A stretch of DNA of 64,000 nucleotides from Candidatus Peregrinibacteria bacterium UBA1369 (GTDB taxonomy: Bacteria > Patescibacteriota > Gracilibacteria > UBA1369), in NCBI GenBank assembly GCA_002305925.1, contig DBRL01000014.1, positions 34,402 to 98,401 of the forward strand. Direction: 5' to 3'. The notes under the pieces are model-generated. The model worked only from the letters and a program-made list of their open reading frames with translations. It searched no databases and was not told the origin of the DNA. The translations under genes and the position numbers were made by a program. This document shows, piece after piece, positions 41,303 to 64,000 of this stretch. The stretch's first letter is position 1. Each line of letters starts with the position of its first letter.

Positions 41303-41726
41303 GGGGATGTTACGGCATTCGACACGGATGTTCTTTTACAAACTGCAATCACGGGATGGTACCGTCTCCCGTCAGATCCGCCGGTACAACAATAGATGCA
41401 AATTCTATTAAGATGGCGATGTTGGGTGAGGCCATGAATTTGGCCCCTTCCTACGCTCGGGCAACCGCCTAGAGCTAGCCGATATCCCCGGACCACAAAC
41501 TCCGGGGTCGCAAGCCGACTGACTCCGCTGGGTCGGGCCTTGTGTCATTAGCGGGACGTCACCGGACGGTTTGGAGTTTTGAGACCGGCTGGCGTTACAC
41601 CAAAACCAGGCGAAAGGAGCTTTTGGTCGCGTCCTTATTCCTTTGGCCCAAACAGACGTGACTATGATTGTAGATGTTTGTACCAGTCGTTCGTGGACCC
41701 GGGTTCGACTCCCGGCATCTCCACCA
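41303..41726 (+). ncRNA. ssrA: tmRNA (SsrA)
   Basis: 5' GGGGATGTTACGGCATTCGACACGGATG closely resembles the Bacillus-type ssrA 5' end. 3' GGACCCGGGTTCGACTCCCGGCATCTCCACCA is the T-arm plus acceptor plus CCA. The acceptor stem has a G3:U pair (Ala identity). An internal tag-like ORF ends with tandem in-frame TAG codons. Confidence 0.85.
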
Positions 41727-41786
41727 AAAATCCATCCTGCATTTGCCAGCGGCAAACGGATCGTGCTATGAATCATGTGGTCAAAT

Positions 41787-41863
41787 GGGGCTGTAGCTCA
41801 GTTGGCTAGAGCGCTACATTCGCATTGTAGAGGTCGGGAGTTCGACTCTCCTCAGCTCCACCA
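41787..41863 (+). tRNA. tRNA-Ala (anticodon CGC), CCA encoded
   Basis: Cloverleaf folded by hand: acceptor GGGGCTG/CAGCTCC with G3:U70; D stem GCTC/GAGC; anticodon stem CTACA/TGTAG with loop TTCGCAT; T arm GGGAG-TTCGACT-CTCCT. Confidence 0.9.
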
Positions 41864-43443
41864 TAAAGAACTTCTCCCGATTTGGAGGAGTTTTTTAATT
41901 TTCCAGATATCACTTTATCCGCTGTAGGAAAGGCTTTTTTGATGGGGTCACCACCATTTGGTTCGTGGTTCAAGAGCAGTTTTTGACCTTGAATCAAATA
42001 ATTCGCAGCTTTCAGTTTTTCTATCGCAGGAATGGCTTGAATTAGGGCAAATTGACCTTTTAGCTCGCGGTTCGAACTTAAAACATTCAAAACCTTTCTT
42101 TTGACCAAAGGATTCAATTCTCGGTAGCGATAAGGAAGGAAATCGAAGATTTGGATCAGCTCTAAAGTGAGCGCCCAAAGAACATCCTCCTTCATATCCT
42201 CCTTTTCGCCGATTTGAGCGCGCAACGTGTGACGTTGATCAATAAGCTCGTTCTTGCGAGCAAGCCCCTCCTCCGAAGTGAAATAGCCGTCCAGAACAGC
42301 CTTGTTGAGTTTTTCAAGCTGTTGATCGATTTGATTGAGCTTCAAGTCCAAAGCCTTGCGTTTCGCCGCATTGTCGACGCGGATATTCGATGAGAGGCGC
42401 TCGATGGCTTCCTTGGCGTAAGGAATAAACTCATCAGCCAGCTCATACTTAGCAAGAAACGCAACAATTTGGTCTTCAAGACGATCCTCACGGATTGTTT
42501 GGCGGCAATCAGGATTATGACATTCAAGATAAATATGAGTCTTGTGATAAGAAGAGACCATGTAACGACCGCACTCGCATTTAAACATCTTTGAGTAAGT
42601 GAAGTCGTGCTGCATTTTGTTTTTCTGGGTGCGACCGTCCAGAATCTCCTGAACCTGATCAAAAAGCTTCTTCGTGATAAGAGGCTCGTGATTACCCTCG
42701 TAGAATAGTGGCTCATCAGAACCCTTCTTTCTCCACATCATCAGGCCGTGATAAAACGGATTTCTGAGCATTTTATAAAACATGCTTTTGCGGATCGGAT
42801 TACCACTTCCATTAGTCATGCCGCGTTTTCGCATGTACTCACAAAGCGTCATGGCCGAATAATTGCCAGACGCGAACAATTTGAAACTTTCCTTCACAAA
42901 CGGGGCGACTTTCGGGTCGACCTGTTTCTTTTTATGATCGTCATCGACACCCTTGATGCCACTGCGGTAACCAATTGGCGGCGGCGCTGGGAAATAACCC
43001 TTCAAGAGAACTTCCTCCATCTTGGTGCTCACCTCTTCCGAGAGGTTTTCTGAGTACCAGACGGCCATGTTACAAAAATTGCGGAATGCCAAACGGCCAG
43101 CCGCGCGACTAGTATCGAATTCACCCTCAATAACGACCATTTTCTTTTTATGCTGAGTGACCAGCTGGTCGAGCAAAGCAAAATCTGCGACGTTACGGGA
43201 ACTGCGATCTAATTTATGAAAAACAACCCCTTCGATTTCAGGGGATGTTAAACGTTGCAACATTTTGTGAAACTCCGTGCGCTTTCCCTTGAAGCCAGAC
43301 TTGGCTTCGGAAAACCAATCGACTATTTCAAACTCCTTGCGCTGAGCGTACTCAGTGATGATGCGTTTTTGAGCAGGCAGCGAATTGTCCATGTCGGCCT
43401 GCGCTTTTGTTGATACACGGCAATAAGCTACATACTTTTTCAT
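41806..43443 (-). CDS. large serine recombinase (phage integrase)
   Basis: Resolvase catalytic domain (YCRVSTKAQ...SLPAQ), recombinase domain, zinc ribbon (CECGRYMVSSYHKTHIYLECHNPDC) and coiled coil. The last ~19 codons are antisense to tRNA-Ala. Confidence 0.9.
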   Translation of the reverse strand: MKKYVAYCRVSTKAQADMDNSLPAQKRIITEYAQRKEFEIVDWFSEAKSGFKGKRTEFHKMLQRLTSPEIEGVVFHKLDRSSRNVADFALLDQLVTQHKKKMVVIEGEFDTSRAAGRLAFRNFCNMAVWYSENLSEEVSTKMEEVLLKGYFPAPPPIGYRSGIKGVDDDHKKKQVDPKVAPFVKESFKLFASGNYSAMTLCEYMRKRGMTNGSGNPIRKSMFYKMLRNPFYHGLMMWRKKGSDEPLFYEGNHEPLITKKLFDQVQEILDGRTQKNKMQHDFTYSKMFKCECGRYMVSSYHKTHIYLECHNPDCRQTIREDRLEDQIVAFLAKYELADEFIPYAKEAIERLSSNIRVDNAAKRKALDLKLNQIDQQLEKLNKAVLDGYFTSEEGLARKNELIDQRHTLRAQIGEKEDMKEDVLWALTLELIQIFDFLPYRYRELNPLVKRKVLNVLSSNRELKGQFALIQAIPAIEKLKAANYLIQGQKLLLNHEPNGGDPIKKAFPTADKVISGKLKNSSKSGEVLYGGAEESRTPDLYNANVAL

Positions 43444-43448
43444 AGGCT

Positions 43449-43997
43449 TTATTCTGATTTAGAAGGTGGCAACTTTTTCTTACCCTTTGAAGAATCCTCG
43501 TCTTCATCGTATTTCTTGCCCTTATTGATAACCGAGTACAACTCAAGGAGCTTTTCCTTTTCGTCCTTTTCAAGCTCAAGGATTCGGAGAATCATTTCGC
43601 GCTCCTCTTTGTCTTTTTGCATGATTTCCTCGATCAGACGCTTCGTATCGGGATTTACCACGATGTGGTTCTGGTGACCATTGACGACTACGTTGGAATC
43701 ACCACCGCCCGCCAAAATCCCGCTGGCCTGAATAAGAGAGGAAAGCTCGTCGAACTTCTTTGCCTTCTCGGCGTACTCGGTCAATTCAGGATTGTCTTCG
43801 CCGAAAAAATAAGAAAGGGGCTTTTTGAGAGCCTTGGAAATATCGGGCACGTATTTCTCAGGATTCTTAATAAAACCGCTTTCGACCTTTTGGATTGTGT
43901 TGGAAACCGCACCGATCTTGCGAGAGAGCTCCATCTGGGACATCCCAGCCTCCTCTCGCGCCCGAATAATACGATTAACGATGGCTTTTGAAGACAT
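43449..43997 (-). CDS. XRE-family HTH repressor (CI-like), no S24 peptidase domain
   Basis: IIRAREEAGMSQMELSRKIGAVSNTIQKVESG. Divergent from the early operon and upstream of the integrase. Confidence 0.8.
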   Translation of the reverse strand: MSSKAIVNRIIRAREEAGMSQMELSRKIGAVSNTIQKVESGFIKNPEKYVPDISKALKKPLSYFFGEDNPELTEYAEKAKKFDELSSLIQASGILAGGGDSNVVVNGHQNHIVVNPDTKRLIEEIMQKDKEEREMILRILELEKDEKEKLLELYSVINKGKKYDEDEDSSKGKKKLPPSKSE

Positions 43998-50356: not shown

Positions 50357-50399
50357 GCTAAGCCTATAATCAAGCAAATATCGGAAACCAAAGTCTTAA

Positions 50400-50442
50400 A
50401 GACCATTTGCCCGCAAAAACGGGCGTCGCATGGTCTTTTTTT
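50400..50442 (+). terminator. intrinsic terminator separating the replication and methylase/packaging modules
   Basis: AGACCAT...(inner GCCCG-caaaaa-CGGGC)...ATGGTCT followed by T7. Confidence 0.7.
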
Positions 50443-50454
50443 AATTTTATCCCT

Positions 50455-51711
50455 ATGAAAATCGAACAAGTAAACATCGAACAACTCATCTTCGCGGACT
50501 ACAACCCGCGAGCCTCAACCGAAAAGGAAGAGCAAGAACTCAAGAAATCCATTGAGCGCTTTGGCTTCGTGGAGCCAGTTATCGTAAACAGCGCCGAGAA
50601 CCGTAAGAACATTATTATCGGCGGACACTTCCGTGTGCGCATGGCAAAGAAAATGGGCATCAACGAAGTGCCCGTGCATTACATCAAAATAACAGACGTT
50701 CAAAAGGAGAAAGAACTCAACCTACGTCTCAATAAAAACTTGGGACACTGGGATATGGATTTACTCGCAAACTTCGACGAAGAGATGCTTCTCGACGTCG
50801 GTTTTGATTCTTCCGAGATAGATGCGCTTTTCCTGAACCTTGATCCAGACGACAAAGACGACGAAGTGCCCGAACTCCCAGACACCGCAGTATCAAAACA
50901 CGGTGAAATTTATCTGCTCGGCGAACATCGGCTCATGTGCGGAGACGCTACGAGCAAAGACGATGTTGCCAAACTCATGAACAACCAGAAAGCCGACATG
51001 GTATTTACCGATCCGCCTTACAACGTGAACTACAAAGGCACGGGCGAAAAGACTAAAAACCACATCAAGAACGACAACATGAGCGATGATGCCTTCATGG
51101 ATTTTTTAACAAAATCATTCCAGCGTTACCGCGAGTCAATGAAAGGCGGAGCTGGCATGTATGTCTTCCATAGCTCATCAACGCAAAGACAATTCGAGGG
51201 CTCACTTGAGAAAGCAGGCTTTGAAGTGAAAAACCAACTCATCTGGAATAAGCCATCAAGCGCGCTCGGTTGGGGTGATTATCGCTGGAAGCACGAACCG
51301 TTCTTCTACACGGGACTCAAGGGCGAAAAGATTCAGTTTTACGGCGACCGCTCCCACTCCACCGTCTGGGACTTCCAGAAATCGGAAAAGGAATTGCTCG
51401 CATGGGCTCAGCGCATGAAGCGGTATGAGCAGCAAGGAAAAACAACGGTGTGGAGTATGTCGCGCAGCAATGTGCAGGAATACGTTCACCCGACACAAAA
51501 ACCCGTGGAGCTCGTCTCTTACGCCATCGTAAATAGCAGCAAGTCAGGTGATATCGTGCTCGACCTGTTTATGGGCTCGGGCTCGGCTCTGATTGCCTGC
51601 GAGAAAACACACCGCGTGTCTTACGGCATGGAACTCGACCCGAAATACGTCGACGTGATCGTAAAACGCTGGGAAGACTTCACTGGCAAAAAGGCCAAAA
51701 AATGCCCCTAA
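50455..51711 (+). CDS. ParB-like nuclease domain fused to a beta-class N6/N4 DNA methyltransferase
   Basis: N-terminal ParB/Srx pattern (ADYNPR...PVIVN...IIGGHFR). Methylase motifs VFTDPPYNVNY and LDLFMGSGSALIACE. Confidence 0.85.
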   Translation: MKIEQVNIEQLIFADYNPRASTEKEEQELKKSIERFGFVEPVIVNSAENRKNIIIGGHFRVRMAKKMGINEVPVHYIKITDVQKEKELNLRLNKNLGHWDMDLLANFDEEMLLDVGFDSSEIDALFLNLDPDDKDDEVPELPDTAVSKHGEIYLLGEHRLMCGDATSKDDVAKLMNNQKADMVFTDPPYNVNYKGTGEKTKNHIKNDNMSDDAFMDFLTKSFQRYRESMKGGAGMYVFHSSSTQRQFEGSLEKAGFEVKNQLIWNKPSSALGWGDYRWKHEPFFYTGLKGEKIQFYGDRSHSTVWDFQKSEKELLAWAQRMKRYEQQGKTTVWSMSRSNVQEYVHPTQKPVELVSYAIVNSSKSGDIVLDLFMGSGSALIACEKTHRVSYGMELDPKYVDVIVKRWEDFTGKKAKKCP

Positions 51712-54933: not shown

Positions 54934-55125
54934 ATGAGCTACAACACCTATCCTAACCCTTACCAGAAACACCTCTCTTCCGAAGAGGTGCTGCAGAAAC
55001 GCCTCGAGAATATCGACCGCAACTGGCTGAAATACGCAAAGGTCGCATTAATTTTCCATGCGCTGCTGCTGATATTTTTATTCACGGTCATCGTTACCGT
55101 GAGATTCGCATTCCTAATTTTTTAA
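54934..55125 (+). CDS. small membrane protein
   Basis: 63 aa with one C-terminal TM helix (VALIFHALLLIFLFTVIVTV). Confidence 0.4.
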   Translation: MSYNTYPNPYQKHLSSEEVLQKRLENIDRNWLKYAKVALIFHALLLIFLFTVIVTVRFAFLIF

Positions 55126-55127
55126 TT

Positions 55128-55898
55128 ATGGCCAACGAAACAAAACTCATAAACATTTACCGCCGAGCAGCGCAGCAGCTGAGAACAACCGTCAGACGTG
55201 CTGATCCGAGAAAGCCAATCATCCTGATTCGGAAAGTGATTATGGGAGACATCAACAAAATTGCCTCTGATTTGGAACGCGAGACAAAGAATTGGCTCGT
55301 GGTCGAGATTCCGCAGGAATACAAGCGTGGCAGTCAGCAAGCGGTAGCGGATGCGAGCAAACTTGGGCTAACACTTGATAAAACAGGTTTCGGGCAAGTC
55401 CACAAAGAAGCTATTCAAGCATTGACCGAAGATGCCTACCTCGACTTTGCCGCTGGTATTGAAGGAGTACGGCGTGCAGGCCGTGGATTTGTAAGCGAGA
55501 TTGTGAAAAAGAAAATCAATGAGCGGATTGTTTCGGGACAGCTCGAAGGAAAAGCACTCGAAACGGTAAAGAAAGAAGTAAAACAGCTCGTGGATGACAC
55601 GGGATTTACTGCACTGGTGGATCGAGGCGGAAAACACTGGAGTATCGACAGCTATGCAGAAATGCTTGTACGCACCCATGTAATCAAGGCAAACGGTGAA
55701 GGCACGAAGAATAGACTGCTTTCCAATCAAGTCGATCTAGTCGAAATATCCCAGCACAATTCGTCGTGCCCGATTTGCCAACCATACGAAGGCCAAGTTT
55801 ACAGCCTTACTGGAAAAACTGAGGGCTACGATAAGGCTCCAGAATTACCGATTCATCCAAACTGCAGGCATACATATTTACCGTACATTGAGGACTAA
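55128..55898 (+). CDS. head morphogenesis protein (Mu F / SPP1 gp7 family)
   Basis: C-terminal CPICQPYEGQVY...LPIHPNCRHTYLPY is the family signature. Confidence 0.8.
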   Translation: MANETKLINIYRRAAQQLRTTVRRADPRKPIILIRKVIMGDINKIASDLERETKNWLVVEIPQEYKRGSQQAVADASKLGLTLDKTGFGQVHKEAIQALTEDAYLDFAAGIEGVRRAGRGFVSEIVKKKINERIVSGQLEGKALETVKKEVKQLVDDTGFTALVDRGGKHWSIDSYAEMLVRTHVIKANGEGTKNRLLSNQVDLVEISQHNSSCPICQPYEGQVYSLTGKTEGYDKAPELPIHPNCRHTYLPYIED

Positions 55899-55989
55899 TT
55901 TCGGGGTTATTGGTCTTGTAAAAAAATACCAATTTGGTACAATCAACATAGAAAGTTTTGATTATAATTAATTGCCAACCAAATCAGGT

Positions 55990-56898
55990 ATGTTTTACAA
56001 AATTAATAACTCCCAGCTCGAGGAGATCGGCAAACGGGAAATACTCGAAAGAGACGTTCAACGGCTCGTTGAGAGTAACCTAGATTTGCTGTTCGGGCTT
56101 CGTTTTGTCGCAAGCGAATTATCAATCGAGAATGTTCGTTTTGATACGCTGGCATTCGATGAGGAAAACAATGCGCCAGTGATCATTGAATTCAAGAAAA
56201 CCTTTGAAAAGAGCCTTTTTGACCAAGGTTTGGAGTATTTGAATATCCTTTTTTCAAGAAAAGCAGATTTTTCCATTACACTTCATAAAAAAATTGGCAT
56301 TACACCTGATCCAGAAAAAATATCGTGGGAAAATGCCAGAGTAATTTTCGTCGGCAATCGTTTTTCGGAACGCCAAAAGAGAGCCGTCTCATTTCAAGGT
56401 CTACCAATTGAATTATGGAGTTTTGAATGGCTCGAAAACGACTTCTTCAAGCTCGATAGAGAGACTTTAATTAAAGAAGCCAGCCTTTCAGAATTTGCGA
56501 AATCAATTGGCAGTGAATCAGTTGCTATCGAAAAAGTCAGCCGAGAGATCAAGGACTATGAGCGCGATTATCATAAGGACGACGCAAATCCAAAAATCTG
56601 GGAACTTTTTGAAAAACTCGAAAGCTTAATAAAAGACTTGGGAGAATTTGAGACGCGTTATCGCAAGCTATATATTGGATTTTACGGCAAACAATCTTTT
56701 TGTGTCGTCAAGCTATTGAAATCAAAGCTGCAGGTTGAATTTGGAAAAGAAAAAGACGAAGGAGTATTTAAGGGTATGAATGGCGTGCACGATATCACTT
56801 CCAAAAAATGGAACCATGCATTCATGTTTGAGGTTGAATCCGAGAAGGATTTGGACAACCTAATGCTGATATTAAAGAAAGCCGCAGAGCTTCTTTAA
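55990..56898 (+). CDS. NucS-like PD-(D/E)XK nuclease domain plus DUF5655-like C-terminal domain
   Basis: ERDVQRLVESNLDLLF...VRFDTLAFDEENNAPVIIEFKK (D...ExK, NucS/DUF91-like). The C-terminus KLYIGFYGKQSFCVVKLLKSKLQVEF...VESEKDLDNLMLILKKA resembles DUF5655. Confidence 0.5.
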   Translation: MFYKINNSQLEEIGKREILERDVQRLVESNLDLLFGLRFVASELSIENVRFDTLAFDEENNAPVIIEFKKTFEKSLFDQGLEYLNILFSRKADFSITLHKKIGITPDPEKISWENARVIFVGNRFSERQKRAVSFQGLPIELWSFEWLENDFFKLDRETLIKEASLSEFAKSIGSESVAIEKVSREIKDYERDYHKDDANPKIWELFEKLESLIKDLGEFETRYRKLYIGFYGKQSFCVVKLLKSKLQVEFGKEKDEGVFKGMNGVHDITSKKWNHAFMFEVESEKDLDNLMLILKKAAELL

Positions 56899-56913
56899 TA
56901 GATTTGTAATCTA
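56899..56913. promoter_or_regulatory. palindrome TAGATTtgtAATCTA upstream of the XRE controller gene (candidate C-box/operator, or a weak terminator)
   Basis: Perfect 6-bp arms, 14 nt before ATG 56927 and immediately after the upstream stop. Confidence 0.35.
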
Positions 56914-56926
56914 TTACTTTTTATTT

Positions 56927-57145
56927 ATGGCCAGTCAAAAAAACGAACCCACAATCGGGCAAAAAATAAGAAAGCTTCGCTTGGCTAAAGAAATGACACA
57001 GGAAGCCTTGGCCAGAAAAGCTGATATTCCTTATACCACCCTCGTGAAAATCGAGAGTGACGCCGTTAAAAATCCTTCCATCGAAACAGTTTCTAAATTG
57101 GCAGCTGGATTGGAAATAACGGTAGATGAACTTATTAACTCGTAA
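56927..57145 (+). CDS. XRE-family HTH protein, probable R-M controller (C) protein
   Basis: 72 aa. IGQKIRKLRLAKEMTQEALARKADIPYTTLVKIESD. The stop is 3 nt before the mod ATG. Confidence 0.7.
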   Translation: MASQKNEPTIGQKIRKLRLAKEMTQEALARKADIPYTTLVKIESDAVKNPSIETVSKLAAGLEITVDELINS

Positions 57146-57148
57146 TTT

Positions 57149-58666
57149 ATGCCTACACTCAATTGGATCGGAAAAGAAGCAGTAGTGAACCACGATAAGG
57201 AGGTTCCTTTTCGCCTTCTCCGTAAAGTGAAGTCTGCTTCTGTAGGCGACAACTCTCAAAATCTCATCATTCACGGGGACAATCTTGAGGCGCTCAAAGC
57301 GTTGATGCCGTACTACGGTGGCAAAGTGAAATGCATCTATATTGATCCTCCGTACAACACGGGAAATGAAAACTGGGTTTACAACGACAAGGTAAACTCA
57401 CCAAAGATCAAGAAGTGGCTTGGGAAAGTGGTTGGTCGTGAGTCGGAAGACCTCTGTCGTCATGATAAGTGGCTCTGCATGATGTATCCGAGATTAAAAA
57501 TGTTGCATGATCTTTTGAGTGAAGATGGAGTGCTGATGATGAGCATTGATGATTTTGAGATTACCCACCTGAGGAATATCGCTGATGAGGTATTTGGGGA
57601 ACAAAATTTCCTTACTCAAGTTATCTGGCACAGAAAGCGCGGAAAAGATAATTCGGCTAAGTTTTTTAGCAGAGTTCACGAATATATTGTTATCTACGCA
57701 AAGGACATATCTAAAGTATCCATTAATAGGATCGAACTCGAGGAAAGAACAAAGAAAGCCTATACAAATCCTGATAATGATCCTAGGGGTGCATACCGAA
57801 AATTGGGAGCGTGGGCACGCGGAACTCAAGGGGGTTCTCGCTACGCTTTTACATCTAAAGATGGCCGCAATTTCCCTGAACGACTCTGGCTGGTCAATAA
57901 GGAAACGATGCTTAAGTACGATCAAGAAAATCGTCTTTGTTTTGTTGGAGATAAGGTTTATAGGAAGCTCTTTCTTTCAGAGCATAGTGGTGCGATACCA
58001 GAAACTATTTGGTTGGATGCTTCAAATGTAGCCAATGCATCAGATGAAATAAAATCCATTTTTGGTAACCAGATATTTGAAACCCCCAAACCTATTCCAC
58101 TTATCAAAAGGCTGATTCAGATTTCAACAACTGATAGCGATATAGTTCTTGATTCTTTTGCAGGTTCAGGCACTACAGGTCACGCTGTTCTTGATCTTAA
58201 CAAAGAAGATGGTGGCAGCCGTAAATTCATTCTTATTGAAATGGAAGACAAGGTTGCAAAGGATGTGACAGCTGAAAGGGTCAAGCGTGCAATAAAAACC
58301 AATGAGTACAACGACGGTTTCGAGTATTGCGAGCTCTCAAAGCCACTCTTCAACGAAGAGGGGCACATTGAAGAAGAGTGCGACTTCAATCAGTTCGCTA
58401 CTTATATTTACTTTACCGAGACGCAAACAAACATTGATCCAAAAGGAATTGATGGCAATTTTATCGGTGAAAAGACAGACACCGAGTATTACTTGATTTA
58501 TAAGGAGAAAGGCAAAAACGTTTTGGATAAATCATTCCTCAAAAAGGTGCGCAAGAGTGATGCCAAAAAAATCGTCTATGCAGATTTTTGCGAATTGGAC
58601 GAAAAAATCCTCGAAGATACTGGCATTGTCTTCAAGCAAATCCCTTACGAGGTCAAAGTTTACTAA
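57149..58666 (+). CDS. mod: Type III restriction-modification methyltransferase (Mod)
   Basis: Beta-class motif order: IYIDPPYNTGNENWVYND (motif IV) near the N-terminus, a variable middle region, then VLDSFAGSGTTGHAV (motif I). Followed by res. Confidence 0.85.
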   Translation: MPTLNWIGKEAVVNHDKEVPFRLLRKVKSASVGDNSQNLIIHGDNLEALKALMPYYGGKVKCIYIDPPYNTGNENWVYNDKVNSPKIKKWLGKVVGRESEDLCRHDKWLCMMYPRLKMLHDLLSEDGVLMMSIDDFEITHLRNIADEVFGEQNFLTQVIWHRKRGKDNSAKFFSRVHEYIVIYAKDISKVSINRIELEERTKKAYTNPDNDPRGAYRKLGAWARGTQGGSRYAFTSKDGRNFPERLWLVNKETMLKYDQENRLCFVGDKVYRKLFLSEHSGAIPETIWLDASNVANASDEIKSIFGNQIFETPKPIPLIKRLIQISTTDSDIVLDSFAGSGTTGHAVLDLNKEDGGSRKFILIEMEDKVAKDVTAERVKRAIKTNEYNDGFEYCELSKPLFNEEGHIEEECDFNQFATYIYFTETQTNIDPKGIDGNFIGEKTDTEYYLIYKEKGKNVLDKSFLKKVRKSDAKKIVYADFCELDEKILEDTGIVFKQIPYEVKVY

Positions 58667-58677
58667 CTCTTACCACT

Positions 58678-60942
58678 ATGAATTTAAAACGCTATCAACA
58701 AAAAGCACTCGATACCTTGAAGGATTACCTCAAGGAATCAGGTCGTGTCGGCGGCAAGTACGCCTACATGGGCATTACCAACCAGCCATATAATTCGGAC
58801 TTCTTCGGTGAGATTCCGTTCGTATGCATGAAAATCCCAACGGGCGGTGGTAAGACGCTGGTGGGATGCAGTGCTGTTGCGGAAATTATGAATACTGCTC
58901 TTCAGCACAAAATGGAGCGTGGCATTGTCATGTGGTTTGTACCATCCGAAGCGATCAAGACGCAGACACTCAAGAAGTTCAAAGACCGCAATGACTGGCA
59001 TCGCCAAGTGCTCGATGAAGCATTCCAGAACGGTGTTCGTATTTTTTCCAACGAAGAAGCTCTTCGCATTCGCAAGGAGGACGTAGAAGACAATCTTTGC
59101 ATTATCGTTTCCAGCCTTGATGCTTTCCGCAAAGAAAAGACTTTGCAGAACAAGTATAAGGTATATCAGGAAAACGGGTCACTCCTCTCTCACTTTGAAA
59201 ACCTTGGTGACGTTAGCGGGCTTGAGCTGGACGAACACAAAACCATCATCAACTCGTTGGCCAACGTGGTACGTATTAGCAATCCGCTCGTGGTGATCGA
59301 TGAAGGTCACAAGACGAAGACACAGCTCTCCATCGACTTCCTCAAGGAACTCAATCCGTCGTTCATCATTGAATACACCGCCACTCCACGTAGCGGTAGC
59401 AATATCTTGGTGGACATTTCCGCCGCCGAACTTAAAGAGGAAGAAATGGTAAAGATTCCGCTAGTACTGGAAAGTGCCGTGCAGTGGAACAATTCCGTGG
59501 CTCGCGGTATTGAAAAGCGCGATGAACTGGAAAAGGAAGCGAAGAAGCTCAAGGGTGAATATATCCGACCCATTGCTTTGATTCAGGCACAGCCAAAAAG
59601 CAAGACCAACCCAAATATTACCGTTGAACAGATCAAGGAATACCTGCTTGCGGCAAAGATTTCGGAAGATGAAATTGCTATTAAGACTTCCGAACTCAAC
59701 GAACTTGAGGGCGTGGATTTGTTCAGCAAGAAGTGCAAAATCCGCTATATCATCACCGTGAGTGCTTTGGCGGAAGGCTGGGACTGCTCCTTTGCCTATG
59801 TGCTAGTGTCCGTGGCAAATGTCGGTGCGAAAATTGCCGTTGAACAGATCATCGGCCGAATCATTCGCATGCCGTATGCGAAACGGAAAGAAAATGAGCA
59901 TCTCAATCGCTGCTATATCTTCGCATCGGCTAAGAATTTTAATGAAGCAGCTGGGCAAATCATTTCTGGATTGGAAACCAACGGTTACAGCCGTGCTGAC
60001 TTGTTGAACGCATCGCAAAAGGAACAAAAATACGAATTGGAAATTGGGCGTGCCGTGAAGAAAGACTTTGCTGCTCCAATGGTTGCTCTTGATGGCGAGA
60101 AACTTTCCTTTGAGGACTTGATCAGCGGCGGTTTTGACCTTTCCAAGGAAGACCCCGCCTTTGATTTTGAGATTCACTATGACAATGACGGTCGCGCTGT
60201 TATTGATATTAAAGATGACAAGTGGATCAAGGGGGCGCAGCAGATGCTCCGACTCACCTACAAGGACAAGAATTTTACCAAGGAAGAATTGGTGCAGTGG
60301 CTGGATCGCAAAATGAGATTCATCATTATTCCGAAGGCGGACAAGGTCGCGTTCATTCAGAAAGCCCTTGACCTTCAGTTGAAGAAACATACTCTCGCAG
60401 AACTATGCGTGAACCGCTATTTGCTGTTATCGAGGATTGATGAAGTGATCAATGACCGCATGCAGGCGTATGCCAAAAAGCGGTTTGATCAGTACATGAA
60501 AAAGGGAGAGATTGGCGTGAAAGCGTTTGATATCTTCCCCGAAACGATCACCATCGGACAGGAAACTCCGCAGGACTTCAACAAGAATTACTATGAGAAA
60601 ATCGATAAGCTGAACAAGGAGGAGCTTTCATTCGTGGAACGCTTAGACTTGGAGACCTTGCCCAATATTGAGTTCTGGATCAGAAATCGTGAGAAGAAAG
60701 ACCCTTTCTACCTTCAAGGCTGGAAAAAGGGTAAGTTCTACCCTGACTTCATCGCTATAACTAAAAAGGGTGCTGTCATTGCATTGGAATGGAAAGGTGA
60801 AGACCGTATCAGCAATGAGGATACCGAGTACAAGGTGGAGGTTGGTGATCTTTGGGCAAACCTTGGCAAGGGCAATCTCCACTTTTTCCTCGTTCATAAC
60901 GGGAATGTGGAGAGCGTGTTAAGTGCCCTTAAAAATCTATGA
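58678..60942 (+). CDS. res: Type III restriction enzyme Res subunit (SF2 helicase plus C-terminal PD-(D/E)XK)
   Basis: MKIPTGGGKTLVG, VVIDEGHK, EYTATPR, GWDCSFAYVL and QIIGRIIRMP. C-terminal YPDFIAI...ALEWKG nuclease motif. ATG 58678 is preferred over the tracked start at 58588. Confidence 0.85.
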   Translation: MNLKRYQQKALDTLKDYLKESGRVGGKYAYMGITNQPYNSDFFGEIPFVCMKIPTGGGKTLVGCSAVAEIMNTALQHKMERGIVMWFVPSEAIKTQTLKKFKDRNDWHRQVLDEAFQNGVRIFSNEEALRIRKEDVEDNLCIIVSSLDAFRKEKTLQNKYKVYQENGSLLSHFENLGDVSGLELDEHKTIINSLANVVRISNPLVVIDEGHKTKTQLSIDFLKELNPSFIIEYTATPRSGSNILVDISAAELKEEEMVKIPLVLESAVQWNNSVARGIEKRDELEKEAKKLKGEYIRPIALIQAQPKSKTNPNITVEQIKEYLLAAKISEDEIAIKTSELNELEGVDLFSKKCKIRYIITVSALAEGWDCSFAYVLVSVANVGAKIAVEQIIGRIIRMPYAKRKENEHLNRCYIFASAKNFNEAAGQIISGLETNGYSRADLLNASQKEQKYELEIGRAVKKDFAAPMVALDGEKLSFEDLISGGFDLSKEDPAFDFEIHYDNDGRAVIDIKDDKWIKGAQQMLRLTYKDKNFTKEELVQWLDRKMRFIIIPKADKVAFIQKALDLQLKKHTLAELCVNRYLLLSRIDEVINDRMQAYAKKRFDQYMKKGEIGVKAFDIFPETITIGQETPQDFNKNYYEKIDKLNKEELSFVERLDLETLPNIEFWIRNREKKDPFYLQGWKKGKFYPDFIAITKKGAVIALEWKGEDRISNEDTEYKVEVGDLWANLGKGNLHFFLVHNGNVESVLSALKNL

Positions 60943-63900
60943 TGAATATGACTCCGACTGATCACAATTATCTACGAATTCAATTTCGTTTGAAAATCCA
61001 TGAAAAAAGTGGGTCGGAGTTTCAGTCGTTCTTTGAATCTATCGCCGAGAAAGCGATTACAGGGTTTCAAAAAATCCGTCCATATGGCAATCAGGGTGAT
61101 GGAGGCAATGATGGCTATGTTCAAAGTGAAGGATCATATTACCAAGCATACGCACCATCCTATCCACAAGAGAAAGATGCTGACGCTGCAAGAAAGATGA
61201 AGGATGATTTTACAAAACTTCAAGCATCTGGATGGGATCAGATATCAAGCATCAAGAAGTACAGCTTTGTTTTTAATGACAAAGGAAATGGCGTTTCAAT
61301 AGAGATCGAGAAAGCCCTCGCTGAACTTAGAAGTGCCAATTCTACTATTGAGTTCTCGCTTCTTCTGCCGAAAGATTTAGAGGTGTTGTTTTTCACCCTA
61401 GATCAGGCCACGGTTTTGTCTCTTGGATTTGATATCAATGCCACCAAAGCTATCGACATTGCCCATGAGCTTCTTAATAAATTAGAGATAGAGATTGATC
61501 GAGATAACGGCAGAAATGTTTTGAAAAGTCTTGAAAGCTTAGCAACCATTATTTCCGATCTAAGCGATGATGGAGTAACCATTCTGTATGGCTTGCTAGA
61601 GGCAAGAGCGTTGCAAAAAGTAGAGAGGTTCGCTGAAGCCAAAAGTAAGTTTGAAGGTCTCGCGACGAAATATCCCAAAGACCCCCGTGCCACCCTGTAT
61701 TTGGCCGAACACTATTTGAATAATGAAGACTTCGAAAAAAATAAAGAACTACTAGAAAAGGCAGAAAAGATTGACTCTGCGCACTGGCTTCTGGCTCTCG
61801 AAAAACTAATTCGTACATACAGGTTGGGAGAAAGTATTGATATCTCCAAGATTGATGAGAACTCATTTCCTTCCGATCCTCGTATCAAATCGAATTTCTA
61901 TCGCCTTCACGCTTTTTTTTACGACAGAGCAAATGACTATAAGATGGCGGATAGCTTTATTGAAAAAGCAATCTCCTCCAACCCAGATAAATTTAACAAC
62001 TACAACGCAAAAATTTCATTGCTAATTTCACGTGCACATAGAGAAAAAGACCGAGAAACTGTTGCCAAGCAATTGAATAATGTACTGAAAGAATTTGAAA
62101 TTCTTGAGCAGAAAGTGCTTGAATGGGGTGGTCTCAGCGATCGAAATAGAGCGGTACTGAATGTAAAAAAACTGCACATTTGCTTTGCGACGGATGAAGC
62201 CAGTGAAATTGAACGCATCGCTCCTCAGACTTTTGAATTGTTGATGAGTTGCTACTTTGATTCGGTAATTGATGAGCTGATGGCTGAACTCCTCATACCG
62301 ATTTCACTCCCCGATAATGATTTCAGTAGACTGTTGGAATATTTAAAAAAAGCTGACAATTCGTATTCAAGCGATTTGGGCAACGTACTTTTTGTTCAGT
62401 TTTTATACCGCGATAAGTTATTTACCGATGGCCTTTCGTTCTTCACGGAAACAAAACATCAAGAATTGACTGATTTGGTGAACAATATTCAGAATAAACA
62501 ACATGATGCCGTACTTTCATACTTGAAAGATCATATTCGTTTTGCTGTGGGTTTAGCAAATACCGCCAAAGATTTCCCAGAACTAAGAAAGAAAATCATC
62601 GAGTCGTTGCCAAGCGATGGAACAATTGAAAAAGAAAAACTGTTATTACTCTTAAATTATGACCAAAAACAAACGGATGAAGCCTTCTCCATTATCCAAC
62701 AGATGGATTTGTCGCACCTAGGTTATTTTGAATGCAAGCCTATTTTGCGGGTTGCCAAAGAAAAGGAAGCTTGGGATTTTGTAATTGTAATCCTTCAGAG
62801 ATTGATGAGTTTTGAGAAGGACAAGAAAGCCTTATTGCAACTAAAGTTGGATTTGTTCAATGCCTATCTTCACCTCGAGAAATTTCCAGAACTGATTGAA
62901 CTTGGTGAGAGAATTTTAGATGAAGAAAATGATCGAGGACTGTTAGAGGATCAAGGCTGGGAATGGTTGATTGGTCAGACTGCCAATGCATGTCTTAAGC
63001 GGAATGAACAAGCGAGAGCTCTTGCGTTGATAGAGAAACATAAGAAGCTTTCTAAAACGTTTGAATATAAAGCTTTTGTTGAAGCTCCTGTGTACATAGG
63101 AAATAAGGATGCAAATAAGGCATTGGAATCAATAGTAGAAGGTATAAAGACTCTAAAAAATCCTTCACCAGAACAATATGGTCGCCTTTTTTGGTCATTC
63201 CATGAAATCAGTAATTTAATTGATTTAAAACTTGATTCTTTTAAAGAAGTAGCAGATGGATATTTTGTAAAACTTAGAGATCAGGAGAGGTGGTATTACT
63301 TAGGGAGTGGCGATGAACTTGATGCAACAAAAATTGGGGTTAGCGATTCTCGATACAATCAACTTCTAGGAAAAAAAGTTGGGGACAAAATTACATTTGA
63401 AAACAAATACAGTTCTTCATCTCCTGAATACACAGTCGAAGCAATTTTCCCAATCGGGCATTATATACATTGGCAATGCTGGCATCACGCGAACAAACTC
63501 TCCATTGAGAATCGATGGGATGTCATGAGGGTAATTGAAGTCCCAACAACGGGTGAAGCCTCTGACTTTCGTTTTATCACTGCATTTTTAGAAGACGAAC
63601 ACAAAAAGCGTGCTGATTTTTTTGAAATGTACTGCAAGGACAACCTTCCATTTGCGATGCTTGCAGTCAACGAAGGTGGAACAACAAATGCTTTGGGGAT
63701 TATTGCAGCGGAAGGCCGCGGATACGTAAAATTTAGCACTGGCGCTCAGATTGAAATTGATGAGCAAAAGAAGATAGCCGAAGGAATTATCAACGGCGAT
63801 TTATTTTACATCGACGGAGTATCAGCTCTAGTTCTTTCTGAAACTGGATTATTAGAGCAAATATACAGCTATCTTCCAAACATAAAAATTCCACAATCAG

Positions 63901-64000
63901 TTATTAGCTTTTTGTGGGAAGTGAAAGATAAGTTCGCTTATAAATCTGGCCAAAATGGTAGTCTTGGTTTTGCTCAAGGGAAACTTCGTTACTCCAGTAT
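60939..64000 (+). CDS. giant multidomain protein, 3'-truncated by the window edge: Mrr-like N-terminal motif, TPR-like array, GreA/GreB C-terminal-like segment, start of a PIN-like domain
   Basis: All 1020 codons were hand-translated with no stop. Absent from the ORF track because it is open-ended. The ATG overlaps the res TGA (ATGA). Motifs: RPYGNQGDGGNDGY...YYQAY; TPR-like helices; IGVSDSRYNQLLGKKVGDKITFENKY...YTVEAIFPI; GDLFYIDGVSALVLSETGLL. Confidence 0.8.
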   Translation, partial: MMNMTPTDHNYLRIQFRLKIHEKSGSEFQSFFESIAEKAITGFQKIRPYGNQGDGGNDGYVQSEGSYYQAYAPSYPQEKDADAARKMKDDFTKLQASGWDQISSIKKYSFVFNDKGNGVSIEIEKALAELRSANSTIEFSLLLPKDLEVLFFTLDQATVLSLGFDINATKAIDIAHELLNKLEIEIDRDNGRNVLKSLESLATIISDLSDDGVTILYGLLEARALQKVERFAEAKSKFEGLATKYPKDPRATLYLAEHYLNNEDFEKNKELLEKAEKIDSAHWLLALEKLIRTYRLGESIDISKIDENSFPSDPRIKSNFYRLHAFFYDRANDYKMADSFIEKAISSNPDKFNNYNAKISLLISRAHREKDRETVAKQLNNVLKEFEILEQKVLEWGGLSDRNRAVLNVKKLHICFATDEASEIERIAPQTFELLMSCYFDSVIDELMAELLIPISLPDNDFSRLLEYLKKADNSYSSDLGNVLFVQFLYRDKLFTDGLSFFTETKHQELTDLVNNIQNKQHDAVLSYLKDHIRFAVGLANTAKDFPELRKKIIESLPSDGTIEKEKLLLLLNYDQKQTDEAFSIIQQMDLSHLGYFECKPILRVAKEKEAWDFVIVILQRLMSFEKDKKALLQLKLDLFNAYLHLEKFPELIELGERILDEENDRGLLEDQGWEWLIGQTANACLKRNEQARALALIEKHKKLSKTFEYKAFVEAPVYIGNKDANKALESIVEGIKTLKNPSPEQYGRLFWSFHEISNLIDLKLDSFKEVADGYFVKLRDQERWYYLGSGDELDATKIGVSDSRYNQLLGKKVGDKITFENKYSSSSPEYTVEAIFPIGHYIHWQCWHHANKLSIENRWDVMRVIEVPTTGEASDFRFITAFLEDEHKKRADFFEMYCKDNLPFAMLAVNEGGTTNALGIIAAEGRGYVKFSTGAQIEIDEQKKIAEGIINGDLFYIDGVSALVLSETGLLEQIYSYLPNIKIPQSVISFLWEVKDKFAYKSGQNGSLGFAQGKLRYSS

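Follow-up and report, generated by a model that had tools for sequence, protein, structure and literature searches.

The stretch of DNA considered here, called the window, comprises 64,000 nucleotides (nt) of contig DBRL01000014.1 of Candidatus Peregrinibacteria bacterium UBA1369 and carries prophage genes, among them a Type III restriction-modification (R-M) system. At the stop codon of its restriction subunit gene, res, begins an open frame that runs off the end of the window and encodes a protein, P0001, of the TPR-GreA/B-C-PIN (TGP) conflict system. This system was defined by Kaur, Iyer, Burroughs & Aravind in 2021 (eLife 10:e70394; PMC8195603). Its core of TPR, GreA/B-C and a new version of the PIN domain is constant but fast-evolving, and is preceded by EAD10 or by one of 13 effector domains, including restriction endonucleases (REase) and HNH DNases (PMC8195603). 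In the source table of the same work, which lists roughly 3,000 TGP genes, the architecture 'REase+TPR+GreAB-C+PIN' occurs about 450 times (derived from 906 string occurrences, two per row) and is among the commonest, and the genes are mostly standalone.

Translation of the plus-strand frame from the ATG at 60939 gives 1,020 codons without any stop, still open at the last base of the window, a run expected by chance with a probability of about 5e-22 in random sequence of 50% GC content. It is missing from the list of open reading frames (ORFs) because the ORF tool omits frames that run off the window. The junction with res reads ctATGAtgaatATGact, where the ATG at 60939-60941 and the res TGA at 60940-60942 form a 4-nt ATGA overlap. 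The frame has two later ATGs, at 60942 and 60948, of which the second (MTPTDHNY...), 5 nt past the res stop, is favoured both by gene callers and by the homologue alignment; the orthologue at the related locus L074 is called from the res-overlapping ATG, and coupled translation with res is compatible with each of the three starts. The res TGA is a true stop, since genetic code 11 gives 88% ORF coverage of the window, no ORFs would fuse if TGA were translated, and TGA closes 11 of the 51 window ORFs. Some Candidatus Gracilibacteria lineages read TGA as Gly. Because a homologous prophage (L015) sits in a metagenome-assembled genome (MAG) of Candidatus Gracilibacteria, code 25 (TGA = Gly) was considered as well, and it is ruled out for the window by the same three observations; the phage genes of L015 align end to end with no TGA interruptions.

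The full product was recovered from public assemblies, where contigs of 151-162 kb carry it. With the ATG at 60948 as its start it has 1,274 amino acids (aa), and its window part is 100% identical. By the L001 offset (+50947) the gene ends at about window-equivalent position 64772, about 772 nt past the window edge. More than 300 homologues have a similar length of about 1,270 aa, and intact orthologues of 1,263-1,280 aa are present on five independent contigs, which makes an assembly error less of a concern. The original prediction, made from the letters of the window, had described the stop-free frame, the reason for its absence from the ORF track and the overlap of its ATG with the res TGA, and all three hold; the C-terminus, which it had to leave beyond the window edge, is now in hand.

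P0001 is a member of Pfam family PF20698, entitled 'PIN domain associated with the TPR-GreAB-C-PIN system', and is built of an N-terminal module, TPR, GreA/B-C, PIN and a helical tail (coordinates in Table 1). On the full protein, PF20698 scores 30.1 bits against a gathering threshold of 27.8 (E 6.7e-7; profile positions 1-134 of 138), and on the in-window fragment alone 17.9 bits, which is below the cut-off; the relatives L002 and L003 reach 40 and 59 bits. An AlphaFold2 (AF2) model of aa 741-1274 (pLDDT 89) was compared with the PDB by Foldseek. It matches PIN folds at probabilities of 0.8-0.99, with 3ix7 at 0.99 and SMG6 and VapC also found. The first catalytic Asp, D956, is encoded at 63813-63815, and E1038, D1067 and D1083 lie past the window; an alignment of 48 homologues shows no variation at D956, E1038 and D1083 and at least 90% conservation at D1067 and E1082. 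C-terminal to the PIN domain, also past the window, lies a helical domain (aa 1091-1274) for which Foldseek gave no informative match.

In the same model, the segment assigned to GreA/B-C takes the fold of Gfh1 (3aoi_X), Rnk (3bmb), GreA, GreB (2p4v) and the Nitrosomonas GreA/B protein (2pn0), with a Foldseek probability of 1.00, 19-24% identity and a root-mean-square deviation of 2.9-3.8 Å over 71-77 columns. The support for this assignment is structural, and the segment is a predicted RNA polymerase docking domain. Further upstream, the Pfam models TPR_16, TPR_19, TPR_14 and TPR_8 match aa 216-350 with E values between 1e-5 and 1e-3, none of them reaching its gathering threshold; by analogy with the family architecture of Kaur et al., aa 350-745 would belong to the same helical repeats, the presumed scaffold or sensor of the constant core. 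The head (61% mean identity) and the PIN domain (59%) are the best conserved parts of the protein, and the TPR, GreA/B-C and C-terminal parts diverge faster (49-52%), as expected for catalytic heads combined with fast-evolving sensing surfaces. The TPR repeats, the GreA/B-C segment and the PIN-like start had all been proposed from the window translation and are borne out: among the profile searches, PIN stood above gathering and TPR below it, and GreA_GreB and Mrr_cat gave no match, while structural comparison yielded the GreA/B-C and PIN folds and only weak matches of the head to restriction endonucleases.

The head is probably a nuclease variant of the PD-(D/E)xK (Mrr-like) fold with Tyr at the Lys site. 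Its motif G50-D51-G-G53-N54-D55-G56 ... Y64-Y65-Q66-x-Y68-x-P70, the Mrr-like signature with Tyr for Lys already noticed in the letters (GDGGNDG...YYQAY), is invariant in the 48 homologues; D51 is encoded at 61098-61100 and Y68 at 61149-61151. For aa 1-215, AF2 predicts an alpha-beta-beta-beta-alpha-beta core (pLDDT 87). Foldseek matches this model in the PDB to EcoT38I, the Shedu nuclease, BstEII, Mus81 and an XisH-like protein, and in BFVD to annotated phage restriction endonucleases, Rpb5-type domains and Vsr; the probabilities are 0.9-1.0 but the matches are weak (E 0.01-0.05, template modelling score 0.3-0.45, none at E <= 0.001).

These weak fold values, together with the absent Lys and the absence of an Mrr_cat or PDB-profile relative, are the reason why the term nuclease is not secure for this module. 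The alternative, which keeps a small but appreciable likelihood, is that the module is inactive and serves for binding or as an adaptor, as the EAD domains at the head of other TGP proteins do, or that it is another kind of enzyme, with PIN as the sole nuclease of the protein; it concerns one step of the proposed mechanism and is not exclusive of other readings. The canonical Lys is replaced in Q66-x-Y68 by a Tyr that is present in every fused and free form examined, so that the catalytic D...(D/E/Q)-x-K triad, whose Lys sits on the third strand, is not found. Pfam Mrr_cat does not match P0001 at E <= 1 or E <= 5, a sequence profile of the module gave only chance matches and no solved relative among PDB sequences, and some TGP proteins bear adaptors (EAD10, BASS11) at the head position rather than enzymes. 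Against this alternative, six polar residues (D51, D55, Q66, Y68, K83 and D87) are kept in both fused and free-standing forms at 26-65% overall identity, which argues for an enzyme and suggests a catalytic site. The invariant K83 on the next helix may stand in for the missing Lys; in BamHI, BglII and Cfr10I-type enzymes the Lys is known to have moved or been replaced. Moreover, the module is the best conserved part of the protein and occupies the effector position before CTD10 in ABC-three component (ABC-3C) proteins.

Its free-standing forms carry the module beyond TGP. An exhaustive phmmer search found the N-terminal module in 978 representative clusters, always at the N-terminus, in proteins that fall into two lengths: TGP fusions of about 1,260-1,290 aa and short proteins of about 300-350 aa. 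The short proteins examined mostly bear CTD10 (PF20275) of ABC-3C systems, and many come from viral contigs; the homology reaches E values down to 1e-29, and the NCBI name of one of them is 'ABC-three component system protein'. The PADLOC model for Lamassu LmuA, PDLC03852, matches the window protein at E 1.2e-8 over model positions 15-130 of 336 and is its only PADLOC match, and free-standing relatives match LmuA and PDC-M68A. Judged by sequence homology, the module is common to TGP and to free-standing effectors of the ABC-3C/Lamassu type, a connection added by the present analysis. The core can also be found behind other heads. A protein on a Fluoribacter plasmid shares aa 275-1273 with P0001 (E 1e-63; PF20698 at 17.6 bits, below threshold) and has an unrelated head (hhalign probability 0.4%, weak HNH_2 match), which shows directly a constant core with a swappable N-terminus. 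A Lamassu/ABC-3C system at the locus itself was ruled out: the match covers the N-terminal module only, and the C-terminal domain and an ATPase gene are both missing there.

One free-standing relative lies in Klebsiella phage ST147-VIM1phi7.1 (L081 4977-6020; MK416018.1 12668-13711). The gene for this 347-aa 'hypothetical protein', QBQ71558.1, stands by itself in a P2-like phage, flanked by the virion-morphogenesis and baseplate V genes and with no ABC ATPase nearby, and is a further case of the module as cargo within a structural operon. A closely similar 347-aa protein at L005 has no CTD10 match.

The phage gene order around the TGP gene identifies the element as a temperate siphovirus. In the window, host genes such as mfd are followed by a transfer-messenger RNA (tmRNA), tRNA-Ala, a large serine recombinase and a repressor-like helix-turn-helix (HTH) protein, and then by genes for RecT, a PD-(D/E)XK exonuclease, a helicase loader, a ParB-methyltransferase, terminase, portal and minor capsid proteins; the contig past the TGP gene encodes scaffold, SU10-type major capsid, tail, tape-measure and Dit proteins. 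The prophage setting named in the original prediction is confirmed, and the stretch 41303-43458 is probably the attachment site and left end.

Table 1. Features of the window discussed in the text (positions of the window; aa, residues of P0001).
Feature	Position	Strand	Basis or remark
TGP frame	60939..64000	+	open frame; identity with P0001; PF20698
N-terminal effector module (putative)	60948..61442, aa 1-165	+	AF2, Foldseek, PADLOC, conservation
TPR / helical repeat region	61593..63182, aa 216-745	+	TPR hidden Markov models (HMMs) and family architecture
GreA/B C-terminal-like domain (predicted)	63240..63467, aa 765-840	+	AF2 model, Foldseek
PIN domain, start only	63807..64000, aa 954-1088 (954-1017 in window)	+	PF20698, Foldseek
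Type III restriction subunit res, 754 aa	58678..60942	+	Pfam ResIII; PADLOC REase_III E 7e-88
Type III methyltransferase mod, 505 aa	57149..58666	+	PADLOC MTase_III E 1e-171; Pfam N6_N4_Mtase
Controller (C) protein, 72-aa HTH	56927..57145	+	Pfam HTH_3 E 1.7e-14; 3 nt before mod
DUF5655 protein, 302 aa, first cargo gene	55990..56898	+	PADLOC candidate PDC-S18 over full length, E 1e-66
Minor capsid protein, SPP1 gp7-like	55128..55898	+	Pfam Phage_min_cap2; left border of cargo slot
ParB-N-domain fused to N6/N4 DNA methyltransferase	50362-51711	+	just upstream of terminase genes
Large serine recombinase	41806-43458	-	3' end overlaps tRNA-Ala coordinates on opposite strand
tRNA-Ala(CGC)	41787-41863	+	
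tmRNA	41303-41726	+	tag peptide ANSIKMAMLGEAMNLAPSYARATA

The cargo of about 9.1 kb consists of the DUF5655/PDC-S18, C-protein, mod, res and TGP genes. Its left border is supported by synteny with L015 and the related loci L073 and L077, and its right border is formed by the scaffold and SU10-type major capsid genes just past the window. The predicted gene order, C, mod, res and a further gene, proved right, and the co-expression of the last gene with res that was proposed along with it is plausible. Adjacent and co-directional, mod and res are assigned to a Type III R-M system by their profile matches; a phmmer search of Res against PDB sequences gave no match. The GC content at third codon positions (GC3) is about 0.6 in the backbone, 0.57 in res, 0.43 in mod and 0.35 in the TGP gene, as in a mosaic cargo. 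The comparison with L074 likewise points to a mosaic history of the cassette (L001 5043-13825), with identities of 95% for res, 79% for TGP and 66% for mod; the low value of mod may reflect an exchanged specificity region. The gene after TGP is scaffold on the window contig, a PD-(D/E)XK_1 protein of 218 aa in L077 (6853-7506) and a DUF2779/RNase H-like protein of 497 aa in L015 (13802-15292), so that the slot varies on both sides of TGP among related phages. Repeats flanking the cassette were limited to short, chance-level matches, and megablast with 55000-64000 as query gave no hit among deposited phage genomes. The promoter scan returned fewer promoter-like sites than shuffled sequences, no better than chance, and is uninformative, as is the terminator scan, which found no plus-strand terminator after the TGP gene.

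Several neighbouring features deserve mention in their own right. The DUF5655 gene, which shows a weak N-terminal match to the C-terminal nuclease domain of Shedu SduA (SduA_C), is a third putative defence gene of the slot and is absent from the homologous L015 slot. The ParB-methyltransferase, an orphan methylase that may protect phage DNA, has a 71% identical counterpart in the L015 prophage; copies with about 40% identity occur in the viral contigs L011 and L012, which also carry a free-standing N-domain protein. The 5' part of the scaffold gene (L001 14139-14215) contains tandem 27-nt units (…GACGATAAAA[A/C]GC…) that give a cluster of minus-strand hairpin or 'terminator-like' calls and most likely encode a short scaffold peptide repeat rather than a regulatory element.

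The same slot in homologous phages reveals how the TGP gene relates to R-M systems. L015 (1-23795; OY760177.1, chromosome of the Candidatus Gracilibacteria MAG) holds a prophage whose structural proteins are 57-82% identical to those of the prophage considered here (TerL 79%, portal 77%, major capsid protein 82%; TGP 56%). Its slot holds a C-protein gene (46% identical to that of the window), a C5 methyltransferase, R.HpaII, TGP and a DUF2779 gene. In L073 and L077 (TGP 83% and 76%) the end of the same minor capsid gene is followed by M.C5, R.HinP1I, EVE, Vsr and TGP. The order mod-res-TGP recurs in L074 and in L078 (TGP 63%, res 84%, mod 52%), and L076 (TGP 71%) is an integrase element with no R-M visible. 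R-M and TGP meet in an ATGA overlap in the window and L074, whereas L078 and L015 each have 27 nt between the two, and L073 and L077 have 13 nt.

Across the broad set of 38 distinct TGP loci from reference genomes and IMG/VR, R-M genes lie directly upstream on the same strand at four: L015 (HpaII), L020 and L040 (Type IIG), and L026 (AlwI). Within three genes they are found at seven. Opposite-strand methyltransferases occur upstream in two loci and downstream in one; the remaining loci have housekeeping, toxin-antitoxin, leucine-rich repeat (LRR) or unknown neighbours upstream and often recombinases downstream. Large serine recombinases are the commonest downstream neighbours of TGP genes elsewhere (6/104 ORFs). 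The TGP gene of L079 sits behind a methylase-type system of the DUF1156/DUF499 kind. R-M was found upstream of TGP in six loci and downstream in one (Fisher p = 0.11), and as seven upstream against one downstream when independent co-directional juxtapositions are counted (p ~0.07), which is not significant; the position of TGP as last gene behind R-M operons of varied types is a recurrent tendency that is statistically weak. A tblastn search with the window mod and res against 40 TGP loci found the window contig only and understated the R-M linkage, since only family-level annotation revealed it. In the table of Kaur et al., CAD79080.1 (Rhodopirellula baltica RB11367), which at 1,274 aa has the same length as P0001, is labelled 'TM+TM+TPR+GreAB-C+PIN', and its gene is downstream of 'TRD+TRD' and 'REase+SNF2' genes, an R-M-like context. 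If it belongs to the subfamily of P0001, its head was read as transmembrane helices in that survey and may have gone unrecognised.

The proposal that the protein is hard-wired to a Type III enzyme does not survive this comparison. In the close clade five of six informative contigs have R-M directly upstream, and in the broad set seven of 38 loci have it within three genes; family-wide, about 10-20% of loci have R-M nearby, and in the same slot HpaII- or HinP1I-type R-M takes the place of mod and res. The gene context likewise led to rejection of TGP as a fixed third subunit of these enzymes, as mod-res-TGP is confined to the close clade (L074, L078) and other relatives stand behind HpaII, HinP1I, IIG or AlwI systems, or with no R-M at all. 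We read TGP as an autonomous defence gene kept in the slot of the present phage lineage while its R-M partner is exchanged, and its last position behind R-M operons as what is expected for cassettes assembled in defence hotspots. R-M and TGP are most likely two independent layers, with DNA restriction first and a transcription-linked back-up second; they would be co-transcribed, and in the Type III case translationally coupled, because they form one travelling cassette and not because TGP is a restriction subunit.

It is unlikely that TGP is functionally coupled to the preceding R-M system, as a guard or back-up that becomes active once restriction has been blocked or overwhelmed, by analogy with PrrC, which is latent under EcoprrI and freed by a phage anti-restriction peptide. 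As a variant, TGP would be an accessory that senses Res translocation or cleavage products, with translational coupling setting the stoichiometry. The overlap of res stop and TGP start in the window and L074, the short gaps in the four other loci, the frequency of upstream R-M in the close clade, the seven-to-one asymmetry and the Rhodopirellula row all speak for coupling, as does the fact that R-M is the commonest recognised upstream neighbour class in the broad set. The R-M partners, however, are of unrelated types (III, IIP HpaII, IIP HinP1I, IIG, IIS AlwI and DUF1156/DUF499), which makes a specific protein-protein guard unlikely. In about 80% of family loci R-M is absent from the three-gene neighbourhood, the genes of Kaur et al. 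are mostly standalone and the upstream asymmetry falls short of significance. In any island R-M genes outnumber other kinds of defence gene, so that adjacency is to be expected from chance alone, and the differences in GC3 and divergence between res and TGP point to separate histories. It is doubtful, too, that TGP is, in this phage lineage and less markedly across the family, a generic 'restriction back-up' module, selected to ride last and translationally coupled in whatever R-M operon is at hand. Were this so, a transcription-complex-directed nuclease, made at a constant ratio to the restriction enzyme, would await any phage whose DNA escapes restriction; R-M and TGP would form a composite cassette with two layers of defence that temperate phages spread, among them relatives of a prophage in a Candidatus Gracilibacteria MAG, and the Tyr-for-Lys head would be a distinct catalytic PD-(D/E)xK variant common to TGP and ABC-3C/Lamassu.

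The mechanism that may be envisaged for the independent second layer draws on two sources. Kaur et al. proposed that the docking site of GreA/B-C is the beta-prime coiled coil, at the secondary channel of a virus-hijacked RNA polymerase, that PIN then cuts the extruded transcript, and that the N-terminal effector fires upon failure of the earlier steps (PMC8195603). The second source is Agp, the TGP protein of the Bab/Agp pair of E. coli ECOR25, which aborts T5 infection (bioRxiv 10.1101/2024.11.07.622273) and is the only experimentally studied relative of P0001 found. According to Ibarlosa et al. (10.1101/2024.11.07.622273), Agp is needed for protection against T5 and some Drexlerviridae, its GreA/B-C point mutation S628L abolishes signalling with loss of T5 protection, and no effector-independent activity of Agp was seen. 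At its N-terminus, a short amyloid motif (BASS11) serves as template for Bab, a separate executioner that targets the membrane. By analogy, the GreA/B-C domain of P0001 would dock in the lysogen on the rim of the RNA polymerase secondary channel, and the TPR and other helical parts would restrain the protein or sense a phage-induced change of the transcription complex. The PIN RNase would cut transcripts from the hijacked polymerase; if infection proceeds, the Mrr-like head, a module that would serve ABC-3C/Lamassu-type systems as effector, would fire as a terminal, probably abortive, nuclease. As a whole, the account of a single-chain TGP immune protein, carried as prophage cargo with a Type III R-M system and acting as an independent second layer, is given a probability of roughly 0.6.

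Besides the doubts about the head described above, several points weigh against this account. We infer RNA polymerase binding, PIN activity and nuclease activity of the head, and likewise expression in the lysogen, where the promoter scan is no help, and action independent of restriction. Pfam GreA_GreB finds no sequence match in P0001 at E up to 5, and the Foldseek E-values for GreA/B-C, 0.02-0.2, are modest, since this small domain makes up a minor part of the large query. A step in which PIN acts first finds no backing in Bab/Agp, where the TGP core showed no effector-independent activity. Finally, the recurrence of R-M directly upstream on the same strand, together with the ATGA overlap, may leave room for a functional link. 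It is very improbable, by comparison, that TGP serves the lytic programme of the phage as a late product that shuts off or degrades host transcripts (by docking and PIN RNase) or host DNA (by the head): the gene does lie between minor-capsid and scaffold genes on the same strand of the late structural operon, with no plus-strand terminator-like site between cassette and capsid genes and no convincing internal promoter, and holds the same position in related phages, but most family members occupy non-phage chromosomal or integrative-element contexts in many phyla, tblastn found no full-length relative in 50,697 deposited phage genomes (the N-terminal module only, in Klebsiella P2-like phages), R-M and a PADLOC defence candidate share the slot as typical moron cargo, the composition of TGP is foreign to the phage backbone, its N-terminal domain is common to ABC-3C/Lamassu-type defence effectors and its experimentally studied relative is a host defence sensor.

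Read as an independent defence protein, P0001 belongs to a category whose architecture, Pfam family and RNA polymerase-directed mechanism are already known, and it adds no new one. The statement in the original prediction that TPR, GreAB-C and PIN architectures had been catalogued is correct (PMC8195603). The notion of an undescribed kind of defence system has to be abandoned, as TGP was published in 2021, has its own Pfam family (PF20698) and includes the studied Agp, and the second-line effector aimed at RNA polymerase or transcripts, offered as a hypothesis, is essentially the mechanism already published by Kaur et al. What the window adds is the ABC-3C-type head, a prophage slot with constant TGP and variable R-M, and a possible bias towards R-M adjacency. 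With its effector fused and no partner gene needed, the window TGP is a compact test case for the TGP model, and the variation of the R-M partner between otherwise homologous prophages offers natural comparisons of TGP alone and with restriction. The head links the TGP and ABC-3C/Lamassu families through a common, uncharacterised Mrr-like variant, and a defence-cargo slot is documented inside the head-morphogenesis operon of an SPP1-like temperate phage.

Compared with known systems, P0001 is closest to the TGP proteins of Kaur et al., with which it shares the order of parts (variable N-terminal effector, TPR, GreA/B-C, PIN) and the wide and patchy phyletic spread of its relatives. It differs in its head, which is of the GDxxxDG...QxYxP...K type common to ABC-3C CTD10 effectors, and in its position, as its gene closes an R-M cassette within the structural operon of a prophage, unlike the mostly standalone genes of that survey. 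Compared by domain description, Agp likewise consists of TPR, GreA/B-C and PIN; the window protein has a fused enzyme-like head instead, and no gene for a Bab or Bell-domain neighbour lies in the locus. With the ABC-3C/Lamassu effectors (LmuA; PDLC03852, PDC-M68A; CTD10, PF20275), homology extends over the N-terminal 165 aa and all conserved polar residues are common, whereas P0001 lacks CTD10 and its locus lacks an ABC/SMC ATPase or middle-component gene.

Individual parts can be set beside well-studied enzymes. Mrr-type PD-(D/E)xK nucleases (Mrr_cat, PF04471) have the same G-D-x-G-x-D-G, followed after about 10 residues by h-h-Q-x-[K] on the next strand, and an alpha-beta-beta-beta-alpha-beta core that the AF2 topology of the head appears to fit; P0001 differs by the invariant Y68 at the Lys site and the invariant K83 on the following helix. 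GreA, GreB, Gfh1 and Rnk possess the same C-terminal globular fold, which docks on the beta-prime rim helices of RNA polymerase, but P0001 is devoid of the N-terminal coiled coil whose acidic tip reaches the active site and keeps the SP[IL]A..L.GK signature only in part, which would make the domain a docking module only and not a cleavage factor. Prophage and satellite defence hotspots, finally, are known from P2 and P4 (Rousset et al. 2022, Cell Host Microbe 30:740). Like them, the window slot is a fixed position in a phage backbone whose anti-phage cargo differs between close relatives. In contrast to them, it belongs to an SPP1-like siphovirus and lies between minor-capsid and scaffold genes inside the late operon, where one cargo gene, TGP, is kept while its R-M partner is exchanged.

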